Assembly (NCBI GenBank): GCA_043821645.1
Contig: JBDRCO010000101.1
Location: 32,001 to 96,000, forward strand
Reading direction: 5' to 3'
DNA: 64,000 nt
Origin: Pseudomonadota bacterium
GTDB taxonomy: Bacteria > Myxococcota > JACRCW01 > JAFGSX01
Positions within the stretch are counted from its first letter, which is position 1. Each line of letters begins with the position of its first letter. Below, piece after piece: positions 1 to 5,062 of the stretch. The notes below the pieces were generated by a model, which ran no database searches, was not told the DNA's origin, and saw only the letters and a list, made by a program, of their open reading frames with translations. Made by a program: the position numbers and the translations under genes.

Positions 1-186
1 CTCGCCCTCCTCGAGCAGATCCAACTTGGGGATCATGCCCTCGGCGTGACCACCGAGCTGCAGGAACACGTACTCCTGTCCGACCGAGAGCACGCTTGCC
101 TCGATCCTCGAGCCAGGCTCCGGGCCCTTGGTCTCGTCTCCGTAGCTTTCGAGCAGTTCCGCAAAGCTGGGTTCGTCGGTGCTCAT
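1..186 (-). CDS. 5' part of S1 RNA-binding domain protein (ribosomal protein S1-like), runs off window start
   Basis: Manual translation from ATG at 186 gives MSTDEPSFAELLESYGDETKGPEPGSRIEASVLSVGQEYVFLQLGGHAEGMIPKLDL, the SFAELL...G..V..V...VF..LG...EG.IP pattern of a bS1 N-terminus. GAGGAG RBS upstream. Not in the ORF track. Confidence 0.8.
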   Translation of the reverse strand, partial: MSTDEPSFAELLESYGDETKGPEPGSRIEASVLSVGQEYVFLQLGGHAEGMIPKLDLLEEGE

Positions 187-320
187 GCACACTCCTCGTG
201 GCCTCCGTCTGTCCGGGAACCGTGTCGCGTGTGCCCGGGAGGCGTCGATAGCAGTGCAAGTTTGCACCGGCGCGTCGAGAAAAAAGCGCTACTGTATTGA
301 AAGTCGAGGAGGTGGCGAGC

Positions 321-542
321 ATGCGATGGTCGGCGCTCAAGATCCTGACCGTGGTTGGCGGTGCAGCCGGTGGCTGGGCTTTCAGTTCGTTCGTGGGGTG
401 TTACTCGTCTTGAGGCATCCTCGGCAACCCGTGGCTCGCGGGTGCTCTGGGCGCCGTGCTCGCGCTCAACCTGGTGTGGACTCCTTCCCGCAACGTTCCT
501 GAAGCCGTGGCTCCTGCGCCCGGGGATCCCCCGGTGGTCTGA
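321..542 (+). CDS. Small two-TM membrane protein (DUF6132-like), probable selenoprotein with UGA=Sec at 411-413
   Basis: GAGGAGG RBS, then ATG 321. Translation MRWSALKILTVVGGAAGGWAFSSFVGCYSS(U)GILGNPWLAGALGAVLALNLVWTPSRN... The frame stays open and hydrophobic after the UGA. The motif matches the GCxxxxCPIxxNP pattern I recall for DUF6132. Confidence 0.65.
423..446 (+). promoter_or_regulatory. Candidate bacterial SECIS hairpin
   Basis: ACCCGUG (427-433) pairs with CGCGGGU (437-443) around a G-first loop GCU, extended by GGC/GCU. The loop lies about 20 nt after the UGA. Confidence 0.5.
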
Positions 543-618: not shown

Positions 619-1857
619 ATGACGAGCCGGTGGTTCAGTGCCTGCGTGCTGGGTCTGGCCATGTTCGTGGCCATGCCCGGCCGCAGCGCCCAGATGGTGG
701 CCCTGAACATGCGTGCCACCGGTGAAGTCAAGGCTGCCCTGGCCGAGACCCTGACGCCCCTGCTCATCGCCGAGCTGTCGCGGCGCCCCGGTATCAGCGT
801 GGTCAGCCAGGCCGACGTGCGCGCCCTGATGGAGAACGAGGCGCGCAAGCAAGCCATGGGCTGCGACGACACCACCTGCATGACCGAGATCGCGGGCAGC
901 CTGGGTGCCGAGCTGCTGCTGTCGTCGAGCCTGGGCAAGGTTGGCCGCAAGTGGATCGTGAGTCTGACCCTGATCCAGGTCGAGCAGGCCAAGGTGTTCA
1001 GGCGCGTCAGCGGCGAGCAGCTCGGTGGCGACGAGGCCGCGGCAGAAGCGGTGATCGCCGCGGTGCAGGATCTTTTTCGTGACGGACTGCCCGAGGAACT
1101 CCAGGGCCCGGCGTCCTTGTCGCGCCTGGGCTTCAAGGCCGCACTGCTGGGTTTTGCCAGGGTGGTTCGCGATCCGAAGCAGGACCCCAAGCCACCGCGC
1201 AGGCGCATCGTCCTCGATCTGGTCAACACCGAGCTCGACTACGACGTGGAGCCCAAGTTCTACCTGCTCGACGTCACCTCCAACCGCGAGATCTCCGACC
1301 TCGACCGCGTGATCCTCGCCGCCCGCGATCGCACCGAGGCCGACCATCTGCTCGACGCCCGCGACCAGTGGCGCCTGCTTCGTCAAGACTGGGATCGCGT
1401 CAAGGAGATCCGGACCCGCGCCCGCGAGCGTGGCGTGGCACCGTCGGGGCGGCCCCTGCGCTTCGAGGACCCGGAGCCCAGGGAGTGGCCCGAGGCCAAG
1501 GAAGCTCAGACCTACTGGAAGACCGTGGCACCGGCGCAGAAGGTGGTGCTGCGCGCGCTCAAGGCCTACCTCAAGCGAGACCCCAAGGCCTTCGGCGCGC
1601 AGTGGGCCAAGGGCTACGAGGGATCGGCCGGACGTTTCTTCGAGGAGCAGCACGCCACCGATCAGCGCAGCAAGTACACCTACACCATCGCCCCGCAGCA
1701 GGTCGTGACACCCTGGGATCTCAAGAGCCTGATCGAGGCCGCCAAGCCCGACGAGATCACCGTGCTGCTGGTGCAGTTCCGCGACGGAAAACCCTACGAC
1801 GACGATCGCGTGTACATGAAGCTTGAGGAAGGAGTGTGGAAGATACGTTCCTGGTAG
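619..1857 (+). CDS. Secreted hypothetical protein with N-terminal TolB-N/CsgG-like domain
   Basis: AGGAGG RBS, signal peptide, and a 'GCDDTTCMTEIAGSLGAELLLSSSLGKVG' motif typical of myxobacterial periplasmic proteins. Confidence 0.7.
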   Translation: MTSRWFSACVLGLAMFVAMPGRSAQMVALNMRATGEVKAALAETLTPLLIAELSRRPGISVVSQADVRALMENEARKQAMGCDDTTCMTEIAGSLGAELLLSSSLGKVGRKWIVSLTLIQVEQAKVFRRVSGEQLGGDEAAAEAVIAAVQDLFRDGLPEELQGPASLSRLGFKAALLGFARVVRDPKQDPKPPRRRIVLDLVNTELDYDVEPKFYLLDVTSNREISDLDRVILAARDRTEADHLLDARDQWRLLRQDWDRVKEIRTRARERGVAPSGRPLRFEDPEPREWPEAKEAQTYWKTVAPAQKVVLRALKAYLKRDPKAFGAQWAKGYEGSAGRFFEEQHATDQRSKYTYTIAPQQVVTPWDLKSLIEAAKPDEITVLLVQFRDGKPYDDDRVYMKLEEGVWKIRSW

Positions 1858-1883: not shown

Positions 1884-4700
1884 CTAGTGCAGCACCTCGA
1901 AGCGCGCGTTGTCCGCCATGCCGCTGGTGTTCCGGTAATTCTTGAACGACGGCCACATCCGGCTCGGCGTGAAGTAGTGGATCGCCGGTACATCGCTGCC
2001 CAGGCTCCGGGTGTCGGCAATTTCTCCTGTGGCGACCACGTCCAGCAGACCGCAGCCGCTGTCCAGTTCCGTCAGCTTCACCACCAGGCGCGCAGCGGTG
2101 GGAGCGAGCTTGTGGACCTCGAGTCGTAGCCTGTACCAGGTGTCCCGTCGAATCAGGCCCGTCAGATCTGCGATTCGCGGTCGGCGGTCGACGGTGGCCC
2201 CGTCCCAGTAGCCCTCGATGTTCAGGCCGCCGGTCTCGTCCGGGTCCAGCTGCACCCCGAAGTTGAGAGCTGAATCCACCGAGGTGCCGCGCAGGCTCCA
2301 GCCCACGCGGTCGTCGTCGAAGCCTGCCGCACTGCTGCTTTGAAAATCCATCTCGAACACGACCCCGGTCAGGCCTGTGTCGTTCCAGTCGAAGGGGCTG
2401 GCCGTGCGGTTGAAGATCGAACGGCCCGGTGCCAGGCCCACCGTGTCACCGCAACCCATACCCGGGGTGACAATGGGTCCGTCGTCATCGAACCAATCCA
2501 CGTGATCCCCGACGTCCACACCCGCGGCGAAGCCGCTGTCGAAGGTCTCGAAGAATCCTGGGTCCGCGGCCACCGGGCCCTGGCAGCTGAGGTCTATGCG
2601 GAGCGCATCCTGGGCGCAGTTGGTGCGCAACTCCTCGATGCTCAATGCGTGGTCGTACAGCCGGACCACCGCGATGTCGCCGTCGAAGGCGCCGGCGGGT
2701 ACACCCGTCGAGTTCAGCATGCGTCCCACGCCCAGAGGGTTGTGGTTGCTCGTGTTCGGGATCACGGACAGGGGCTCCGCGGTGTCGACTCCGCCGTCGA
2801 CGACTAGGGCCCTGGTGATGCCATTGTAGGTGACGGCCACCTGGTGCCAGTCTCCGATAGTCAAGGCTGCAAGGCCGACGAGCGGTGTGTTGAGACTGGT
2901 ACTGGCATCCTCGAGGTCTGTGCCCACCCTGCCATCTTCGGTGATGCCCAGGATGTAGTTGAAGTCGACCAGGCTGTTTTCCTGCTCGTCCCGTCCCTTG
3001 GACACGAGAGGTTCGAGAGGGATGCCACCGGTGCCAGTGATGTTGACCGAACCCACAGCGCGCCGGCGCATCAAGACCTCGACGGTGAAGGTGGGGCTGT
3101 TCAAGACCCCTGAGGGGTCTGCGATCGCGGCCTGATCGTCGACGCCATCAAAAGACAGGCGGTAGGGATCCGTGTCCAGACCCGCGCCTGTCCAGCCCGA
3201 ATTCACGCCGCAGGCCGGTGAGGAGAAGCCGGTGAGGGCGCTTGACCAGGCGCTGTGCAGGTCGAGCCATTGCAGGGGTGCCGATACCGGGCAGGAGGCT
3301 CCGGCAAAGCTGGCGCCATCGCTTTGTGCGGCGTCCAGGTGGAGCAGGAGGCCGGAGCTGACGATGGTACATCCCTCGTCGATCCCGTCCTGGCAGTTGT
3401 TGTCCACGCCGTCGCAGGTCTCAACCTGGCCGGGTGCGATAGCGATGTCCGCGTCGTCACAATCGTTGGCAGTGGCCGTGGCCAGCCAGGTGGTGCCCGC
3501 GCCATCAGGGTCCTGGCAGGACGGGGTCACGGCGGTGTTCACGGTGTAGCCATCGCCATCCGAGTCCCGATACCACAGGGGGGCCAGGTCCTCGCCATCG
3601 TGGCCGTCGCAGTCTTGATCCTGCCCGTCGCAGCTGTCTTGAGCTGGATTGCCAGGATAGCAGTCAGCTCCACAGGCACCCGTGTCATCGTCGCAGTCAA
3701 AAGCCGTGACAGCGGAGCCGGCGATCCATCGAGAGCCATTCCCGTCCGGATCATCACAGGCCACGACGGGATCCAGAGCGCCAGGAGCGCCGTCGCCGTC
3801 GGCGTCGACAAACCACAACCGAAGGTCGTCCTCGCCGTCGCGACCGTCGCAGTTCTGGTCGAGCGCATCGCACAGGTCGCGGGTCGAGTTGGAGGGGAAA
3901 CAGGAGGCACCACACTGCTGGGGGTCGTCGTCGCAGTCGAAGGCAACTAGTCCGGCGGCGGGCAGCCATTCCCCGCCGGTCCCGTCAGGGTCCTCGCAGC
4001 TCACGACCAGCTCCGTCGCCCGGGGGAACCCGTCGCCATCCACGTCGCGGAACCAAGCCCGTCCCTCGGCCTCGCCCTCGACGCCATCGCAGTCGTCGTC
4101 GAGGTCATCACACAGGTCCGGGGCGAGGTTGCCGGGAAAGCAGCCGGCACCGCAGGCTGATGGATCATCATCGCAGTCGAGGGTCGTGGCCACGGCGACC
4201 CAGTGGATGTCCGCACCATCGGGATCCGCGCACGCTCGCAGGGTCGCGGTCGACCCCACGAAGCCATCGCCATCCTCATCCAGGTACCAGTCCAGAGTTG
4301 TCACGCCGGGTCCAGCCATCCCCGTGCAGTGGCCCTGGGCGTCGCAGCTATCGTGCTCGGTGCAGTCCAGGCCGTCGTCACAGGGGCCAGTCACCGGCAG
4401 GTGCTGACAGGTTCCGGAGGCACAGCGGTCGTCGGTGCAGTCGTTCCGGTCATCACAGTGGGCGTCCAGATGGCATGCGGCGGGACTCTCGGCGACGCAA
4501 TGCACCGCTGCGTCGAGGACAAACCCGACTTCACACGCGCAACGCGGCTGCCCGTCGACGTTCTCGCACTGGCCATGGCCGTCGCAGTTCACGCTGCTGC
4601 AGGGGTCGGAACGATCTGGGTCGAAGCCCAGGCGAGTGCATGCAGGAGCTGTCCAGAGCGCGGCGACGAGGAGGATCGTCGGATACCGTGGACGAAGCAT
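1884..4700 (-). CDS. Cys/Asp-rich surface (lipo)protein: EGF-like domain, MopE-like putative metal-binding repeats, LamG-like jellyroll
   Basis: Signal peptide ending in Cys. EGF-like CDGHGQC..CACEVG. Four W(Y/F)xDxDGDG...DCDD repeats and DCDDADIAIAPGQVETCDGVDNNC. LamG motifs LSFDGVDD, WHQVAVTY and FDGDIAVVRLYDHAL. Confidence 0.85.
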   Translation of the reverse strand: MLRPRYPTILLVAALWTAPACTRLGFDPDRSDPCSSVNCDGHGQCENVDGQPRCACEVGFVLDAAVHCVAESPAACHLDAHCDDRNDCTDDRCASGTCQHLPVTGPCDDGLDCTEHDSCDAQGHCTGMAGPGVTTLDWYLDEDGDGFVGSTATLRACADPDGADIHWVAVATTLDCDDDPSACGAGCFPGNLAPDLCDDLDDDCDGVEGEAEGRAWFRDVDGDGFPRATELVVSCEDPDGTGGEWLPAAGLVAFDCDDDPQQCGASCFPSNSTRDLCDALDQNCDGRDGEDDLRLWFVDADGDGAPGALDPVVACDDPDGNGSRWIAGSAVTAFDCDDDTGACGADCYPGNPAQDSCDGQDQDCDGHDGEDLAPLWYRDSDGDGYTVNTAVTPSCQDPDGAGTTWLATATANDCDDADIAIAPGQVETCDGVDNNCQDGIDEGCTIVSSGLLLHLDAAQSDGASFAGASCPVSAPLQWLDLHSAWSSALTGFSSPACGVNSGWTGAGLDTDPYRLSFDGVDDQAAIADPSGVLNSPTFTVEVLMRRRAVGSVNITGTGGIPLEPLVSKGRDEQENSLVDFNYILGITEDGRVGTDLEDASTSLNTPLVGLAALTIGDWHQVAVTYNGITRALVVDGGVDTAEPLSVIPNTSNHNPLGVGRMLNSTGVPAGAFDGDIAVVRLYDHALSIEELRTNCAQDALRIDLSCQGPVAADPGFFETFDSGFAAGVDVGDHVDWFDDDGPIVTPGMGCGDTVGLAPGRSIFNRTASPFDWNDTGLTGVVFEMDFQSSSAAGFDDDRVGWSLRGTSVDSALNFGVQLDPDETGGLNIEGYWDGATVDRRPRIADLTGLIRRDTWYRLRLEVHKLAPTAARLVVKLTELDSGCGLLDVVATGEIADTRSLGSDVPAIHYFTPSRMWPSFKNYRNTSGMADNARFEVLH

Positions 4701-5062
4701 GAACAACCCCTTGGAACAACACCCTGGACCGGTGACAGACTCGCGAGTCCAAGCATCCTGCGGCTGCGTCGGACCCTGCGCGTTCTTCTCGTGACTCCAT
4801 GTTTACCACAGGGTCCAGTAGGTCGGTGCGCAAGCGGCAGCTTTTTACCGTGACCGCGTGCCCTGCGTCGGCCTGGCTCGCCAGAGGATCGGAGAACTCG
4901 AGCAGATCCTGCTCAGCGAGATCGAGAGCGGTGAGCAGCGACGTGACAAGGGCCGGGATACCACGGGGCTGCTACAGGAGTTCGGACCCGCACCCATCTC
5001 CGCGGAGGCTTCCGCGGTGGCCGGGCTGGGCTGAAGGTGCGTGAATCGGCACCGGGCACAGC

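Follow-up and report, generated by a model that had tools for sequence, protein, structure and literature searches.

The window, meaning the whole 64,000-nucleotide stretch of DNA that was analyzed, comes from a 7.07 Mb genome (G000; 140 contigs, 94.7% complete) and carries a short putative selenoprotein gene on the forward strand at positions 321-542. It is preceded by a divergent gene (1-186, reverse strand, continuing upstream; L029:158-1444) whose product has multiple S1 RNA-binding domains, and the same arrangement in the related genome G001 indicates that synteny holds within family f1. Downstream, 619-1857 (forward strand) encodes 412 residues that match no Pfam family and start with an N-terminus resembling a signal peptide, and 1884-4706 (reverse strand) encodes a Cys-rich protein of 940 residues that is probably secreted and contains both a Laminin_G_3 domain and a putative metal-binding motif of the MopE type. 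The features of the short gene are as follows.

306-312, forward strand: ribosome-binding site GAGGAGG, read directly, 8 nt ahead of the ATG at 321
321-542, forward strand: putative selenoprotein coding sequence of 73 residues (ATG 321, selenocysteine codon 411-413, stop TGA 540-542), from its translation, orthologs, and profile-profile match to DUF6132
324-392, forward strand: predicted transmembrane helix 1, residues 2-24, with a Gly-rich GGAAGG, from AlphaFold2 and the invariant alignment columns G14 and G18
399-401, forward strand: TGT codon of Cys27, first of the C-x3-U pair, invariant in 44/44 aligned relatives
411-413, forward strand: UGA probably read as selenocysteine (residue 31), in the column of the second Cys of DUF6132, TGA in 5/5 orthologs, with the base call repeated in the independent run X3
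427-443, forward strand: SECIS-like hairpin with stem 427-433/437-443 and triloop GCT at 434-436, the loop starting 20 nt past the UGA
429-476, forward strand: predicted transmembrane helix 2, residues 37-52, from the invariant Pro-Trp, based on AlphaFold2, the match of the post-UGA peptide to DUF6132, and a third-position GC of 0.91

Translation of the locus with Table 11 gave ORFs of 30-38 residues only, and reading through the internal UGA gave a peptide of 73 residues, ...FVGCYSS-U-GILGNPW..., flanked by two hydrophobic stretches. This is the product that the original prediction, made from the sequence of the window, had described as missed by ORF callers, and its ribosome-binding site, ATG, first transmembrane segment, VGCYSS-UGA-GILGNPW core, second transmembrane segment, and stop at 540-542 were each located where it had placed them. 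The GC content by codon position past the UGA (414-479) was 0.77/0.50/0.91 and resembled that of the neighbor gene at 619-1857 (0.69/0.45/0.87), and the overlapping ORFs on the opposite strand all resembled GC-rich noise. A scan of the locus for promoters and terminators found nothing. In the ortholog from genome G110 the gene begins with a GTG start preceded by GGAGGAGG. Together with the conservation described below, these features suggest that 321-542 is very probably a real gene that ORF callers overlook.

In total, 61 related genomes were searched first, with the read-through protein as query. Matches interrupted by an in-frame TGA were recovered from G001, of the same family, and from G037, and Cys forms from G008; weak matches in G012, G045, and on contig C50 of G001 were dropped after translation, the motif being missing. 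Three Sec and two Cys forms were then combined into a profile (A1), which identified relatives in 60 of 401 genomes taken as a sample of the phylum, probably Myxococcota; seven of the matches have an in-frame TGA, and all seven were inspected. The C-x3-U column is common to five (G000, G001, G037, G085, and G110; families f1 and f21) with the consensus (V/I)GC-x3-U-(G/M)(I/L/F)(L/M)x(N/S)PW, and past the UGA these five species keep the frame, 29-42 further codons, and the pattern G-I-L-x-(N/S)-P-W...G...L. A second Sec type, ...VGC-x5-U-MFTGSAW..., was found in genus g101 (L067, contig C96 of G339; L068, contig C24 of G169) with its own 8-bp hairpin and an 8-nt loop starting 18 nt past the UGA; the occurrence of both x3 and x5 spacers suggests that Sec entered the family with at least two different spacers in one phylum. 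The codon after the Sec UGA was AUG in G037 (L030), L067, and L068 (UGA-AUG-UUC) and Gly in the other four.

The remaining A1 matches were Cys forms of the type VGCRTGTCPITSNP(W/F), with 14 of the 17 scanned passing the Pfam DUF6132 cut-off and the two Cys copies of G008 lying slightly below it (21.3 and 22.4 bits against 23.2). In a library of 1.84 billion representatives, A1 returned 950 matches at E <= 1e-3; among the best 150 of these the spacing was C-x4-C in 121 and C-x3-C in 16, showing that ungapped Cys counterparts of C-x3-U exist, and five of the 16 C-x3-C proteins scored above the Pfam DUF6132 cut-off. The closest Cys counterpart, also among the best 150 of the 950 matches, was the C-x3-C protein P0020, which in the ESM Atlas clusters with DUF6132 at 0.89 (a lead only). 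A tree of 44 sequences, built on a short alignment and with long branches, placed the five Sec forms and P0020 on one branch (support 99/93) and the Sec forms by themselves on another within it (79/75).

Wider scans yielded no new Sec members: the genome contigs gave four loci with proteins identical to four already known, and the metagenomes gave two copies of one known protein plus two Cys forms, both scans being poorly aimed because the back-translated patterns had C rather than TGA at the Sec position. A word-indexed protein search and a tblastn search of plasmids with a canonical DUF6132 protein as query gave no match. Apparent fusions upstream of the f15 Cys forms, in frames of up to 542 aa, contained no domain besides DUF6132 and were set aside as GC-rich open frames.

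The recurrence of TGA at this column also bears on the base call itself. In a window from an assembly fragmented into 140 contigs, a TGC or TGT wrongly sequenced or assembled as TGA might be suspected; however, five separately assembled genomes, and two more besides, have TGA in this column, and a contig from run X3, an independent groundwater metagenome of another study, spans 371-674 with 0 differences and the same TGA. A further run, X1, perhaps the source sample, spans the whole stretch, no RNA run having turned up for it, and with independent contigs reading TGA where TGC or TGT would have spoken against the proposal, the probability of such an error is negligible.

The relation of the read-through protein to DUF6132 (PF19628) had been put forward from a family motif, and the Pfam search proposed for verifying it failed: the DUF6132 model (gathering score 23.2 bits) did not match the read-through protein at E values of up to 10, a profile-profile comparison being needed instead. 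PF19628 was likewise silent over the whole G000 genome, as it was in the control genomes, and NCBIfam, including the selenoprotein models of release 20, gave no match to the protein. Comparison by hhalign of a five-member Sec profile with a 30-member Cys DUF6132 profile gave a probability of 98.9% (E 3e-17, 59 columns); U, which was written as C in the Sec profile and so helps that one column, fell at the second, invariant Cys, and the spacer was aligned with a gap of one residue. The post-UGA peptides alone (A5, no placeholder) matched DUF6132 directly after the second Cys at 92.3% (E 5.5e-7); the homologs therefore do align beyond the UGA, and the proposal that the UGA falls at the second Cys of the family was borne out by both alignment and hhalign. 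In addition, a profile that included the protein of the window retrieved proteins above the Pfam DUF6132 cut-off.

Invariant positions across the 44 sequences were G18, G26, C27, C31 (U in the Sec forms), and P37. An AlphaFold2 model from the 44-row alignment (mean pLDDT 76.4, loop about 68-71) consisted of a helix at residues 2-24, a loop at 25-36, a helix at 37-52, and a disordered tail. The motif given for DUF6132 was right for the Cys relatives, but the spacer in the window, C-x3-U, is one residue below the common C-x4-C, and the usual family spacing is not that of the protein encoded here. These comparisons make it very likely that the protein belongs to a small Sec clade at the edge of DUF6132, in a family whose members carry C-x4-C or C-x3-C.

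Bacterial SECIS elements have a G early in the apical loop, which lies 16-37 nt from the UGA. The hairpin past the UGA of the window has two 7-nt arms (427-433 and 437-443, 7 bp) and a GCT loop (434-436) that starts at +20, in agreement with the predicted stem-loop with a G-first loop about 20 nt downstream. The segment from the UGA to +57 aligned free of gaps in the five C-x3-U genes, and columns 17-23 against 27-33 were paired in 35 of 35 cells (7/7 pairs in 5/5 Sec forms). Pair 17-33 was A-U, G-C, or C-G, position 2 of an Asn/Ser codon and position 3 of a Gly codon varying together. Pair 21-29 was G-C except in G001, which has A-U; here the third position of a Pro codon varies along with a substitution of Met for Thr. 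This covariation rests on few events because the C-x3-U genes number only five and all derive from one phylum, in assemblies of the metagenome type. The observed pairing score was reached by 4 of 500 shuffles, and sliding the partner by 1-3 columns reduced pairing to 29-60%. The triloop began with G in all five, this G being the third position of the invariant Trp codon.

At the same columns the Cys forms (n = 26), those with N-P-W included, formed 0-4 of the 7 pairs (mean 2.7), and the hairpin was missing from 26/26. The selD gene of G000 provides a second point of reference, its SECIS having an 8-bp stem and a GGA triloop whose start is likewise 20 nt past the UGA. Genome-wide, 73 of 157,553 TGA trinucleotides, the selD Sec codon among them, were followed by a perfect stem of 7 bp or more and a G-first triloop at +20, a criterion picked after seeing the data. 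At 37 TGAs of G000 with a selD-like hairpin there were also at least 25 open codons on each side; besides selD and the gene of the window, these were mostly Arg/Pro-rich strings resembling wrong frames. Rfam models searched against 300-600 gave chance-level matches only.

The same evidence weighs on the reading of the UGA as a genuine stop, in which the locus would encode a 30-residue one-helix peptide or a pseudogene, with the downstream hairpin as, e.g., a terminator-like or regulatory stem. TGA is a stop in Table 11 and also the terminal stop of this gene, and the hairpin energy is unexceptional: the 76-nt stretch folded with ordinary energy (z = -0.62), and 52 of 200 shuffles folded equally well. 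Selection past the UGA is also not clearly purifying in every pair, dN/dS for this short and saturated region being below 1 in seven of 10 pairs, at or above 1 in two (1.03 and 2.15), and saturated in one. Against this, five species preserve the TGA together with an open frame of 29-42 codons beyond it and the sequence that these encode, and the post-UGA peptide by itself matches the second half of DUF6132. The hairpin is confined to Sec forms and copies the SECIS of the genome's own selD, and a T-run terminator was not present. Termination at 411-413 is consequently considered very improbable.

The organism also possesses the machinery that Sec insertion would demand. The genome G000 encodes selD, selB, selA, and tRNA-Sec above curated cut-offs (387.7, 256.3, 531.3, and 78.6 bits, respectively), as the original prediction had implied in expecting SelA/B/C/D, and its selD is itself a selenoprotein gene with one in-frame TGA (...CGAG-U-ASKLGPGDL..., G000:C87 ~204907, reverse strand, locus L001). 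The genomes G001, G037, and G085 contain all of selA, selB, Sec-containing selD, and tRNA-Sec, while selA is present in G169 and G339. G110 (81% complete) yielded only selD with a Sec codon and part of selB at the end of a contig, and neither selA nor tRNA-Sec. All seven TGA carriers thus have selA or a Sec-containing selD, and selA, selB, selD, and tRNA-Sec are all missing from G008 (100% complete), the genome with two Cys forms. The association between Sec trait and Sec form is statistically weak because selA is widespread in the phylum (296 of the 401 genomes sampled, a tally that includes the unpublished G195).

Passage of the UGA by other means would involve either a near-cognate tRNA inserting Trp or Cys or termination followed by restart, giving two peptides. 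Restart draws some support from the AUG directly after the UGA in G037 and the two g101 genes, but in 4/5 C-x3-U genes that codon is Gly and not a start codon. Bypass without Sec also sits poorly with the presence of selA or Sec-containing selD in all seven carriers and with the Cys-carrying G008 being the genome devoid of the whole machinery, and it leaves the Sec-specific hairpin with no role. Such bypass is therefore regarded as improbable.

Recoding of the UGA at 411-413 as selenocysteine, with a probability that we put roughly at 0.9, is instead consistent with the conserved UGA, the homology on both sides of it, the covarying hairpin specific to Sec forms, and the machinery, all of which favor the Sec assignment first made for the locus. 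In the proposed mechanism, SelB and tRNA-Sec would recode the internal UGA, directed by the SECIS hairpin at 427-443, which would lie within the coding sequence and be built from its N-P-W-L-A-G codons. The product would be a 73-residue helical-hairpin membrane protein with Cys27-x3-Sec31 in the short loop between the helices.

The N-termini of all five C-x3-U proteins contain 2-3 Arg/Lys and by the positive-inside rule are probably cytoplasmic, which would place both termini in the cytoplasm and the C-x3-U loop at the outer membrane face or buried. Several relatives are adjoined by genes related to thiol redox chemistry. In G085 the Sec gene lies ~40 nt downstream of an OsmC gene, and each of the two Cys copies of G008 has OsmC immediately after it, one of them also being accompanied by thioredoxin and an AhpC/TSA-redoxin gene. 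The OsmC-like neighbors were thus found in three loci of two families (L059:2514-2960, L028:1642-2088, and L032:1044-1490), the order being reversed between G085 (OsmC first) and G008 (OsmC second). Among the f15 Cys loci scanned, a thioredoxin-reductase-like gene adjoins 4/6, mostly in convergent or divergent rather than shared orientation, and thioredoxin adjoins 2/6. The locus in G000 had no redox neighbor, being flanked by the divergent S1-domain gene and the gene for a secreted protein, and G001 likewise showed the divergent S1-domain gene alone.

Because OsmC, thioredoxin, and thioredoxin-reductase genes adjoin its relatives, a membrane thiol/selenol redox role is favored for the protein, although given Sec recoding the odds for it are about even. 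The protein was originally described as a redox or metal-binding membrane protein, of which the two-helix membrane part stood and the choice of chemistry continues to be inferential. In the favored role, the Cys/Sec pair would cycle between selenol/thiol and selenylsulfide as a membrane-bound redox center tied to thioredoxin/OsmC peroxide-defense systems, with Sec replacing the more reactive of the two cysteines. More speculatively, DUF6132-type mini-proteins may represent a minimal two-helix membrane dithiol/selenol-thiol module that works with thioredoxin/OsmC and into which Sec was recruited repeatedly with different spacers, x3 and x5 among them in this phylum; within the bilayer it might act on hydroperoxides, lipid or organic, or on species of chalcogens and metalloids.

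The main rival to the redox role accepts a real selenoprotein and supposes, by analogy with MerF and MerT, that the Cys/Sec loop serves to bind thiophilic metals or metalloids such as Hg, As(III), Cu(I), or selenium or tellurium species, or to pass them along the membrane or through it. The variable spacer (x3, x4, or x5) would suit a flexible chelating loop, and a selenoprotein already catalogued (PMC13188914, Table 1), a "putative mercuric transport protein" resembling MerT, has a C/SxxU motif. Some Cys loci moreover adjoin ArsR with an ACR3-type (SBF) carrier or SAM methyltransferases (2/12 loci), others adjoining a CoA-disulfide-reductase-rhodanese gene. In the scanned loci, however, OsmC, thioredoxin, thioredoxin-reductase, and AhpC/TSA neighbors were commoner, mer genes were not seen, and Pfam scans gave no similarity to the MerT/MerF families. 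Soft-metal or metalloid handling is accordingly a possible but rather unlikely function, and the redox role is retained as the working interpretation.

With regard to novelty, Table 1 of a 2026 review lists 119 prokaryotic selenoprotein families and subfamilies (PMC13188914), among which neither PF19628 nor a C-x3-U motif nor a membrane mini-protein of this kind appears. The family is also missing from the deep-Sep paper and four supplementary files, the supplements covered being those of PMC12013277 only. Literature searches on selenoproteins of Myxococcota and on CxxxU-type motifs returned nothing relevant, and in the library searched DUF6132 led to no relevant paper, its single match being false. 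Judged by its sequence, the locus is thus best described as a real, uncatalogued selenoprotein gene, and its lineage as a new Sec-containing one bordering on DUF6132. Recoding would follow the usual bacterial mechanism, and the novelty lies in the family.

The new family would consist of a 7-kDa integral membrane protein that gene callers cut to nothing, and the SECIS geometry taken from a genome's own selD can pick out such hidden selenoprotein genes. Since Sec marks the chemically active residue, the gene supplies a testable hypothesis for DUF6132, i.e., a redox-active or metal-binding membrane Cys pair, and flags the OsmC, thioredoxin, and thioredoxin-reductase neighbors as candidate partners of DUF6132 proteins. 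If the redox-module reading is true, the family would be among the few integral-membrane selenoprotein families in bacteria.

The gene resembles other bacterial genes with a SECIS within the ORF, the prototype of which is E. coli fdhF, in its in-frame UGA at the position of the Cys of homologs, the G-first hairpin downstream, and the presence of the machinery; against the selD element of G000 in particular, the distance and stem length of the hairpin match. With DUF6132 the protein shares its size, Gly-rich helix, loop of the type (V/I)GC-x-C...(N/S)P(W/F), and second helix, and it differs in having Sec for Cys, a spacer of x3 rather than x4, and G-I-L-G in place of P-I-T-S past the second position; the Pfam model is also blind to it, and the Sec forms together with P0020 occupy their own branch. 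The mercury proteins MerF and MerT, Cys-pair proteins of two and three helices, respectively, provide an analogy as very small helical membrane proteins with a thiol/selenol pair at a helix end, but a sequence relationship was not detected, the motif and spacing are other, and a mer operon is not present here. Finally, the protein encoded in the window would be an integral membrane mini-protein, in contrast to the thioredoxin-like fold of most characterized selenoproteins as given in the review (PMC13188914).
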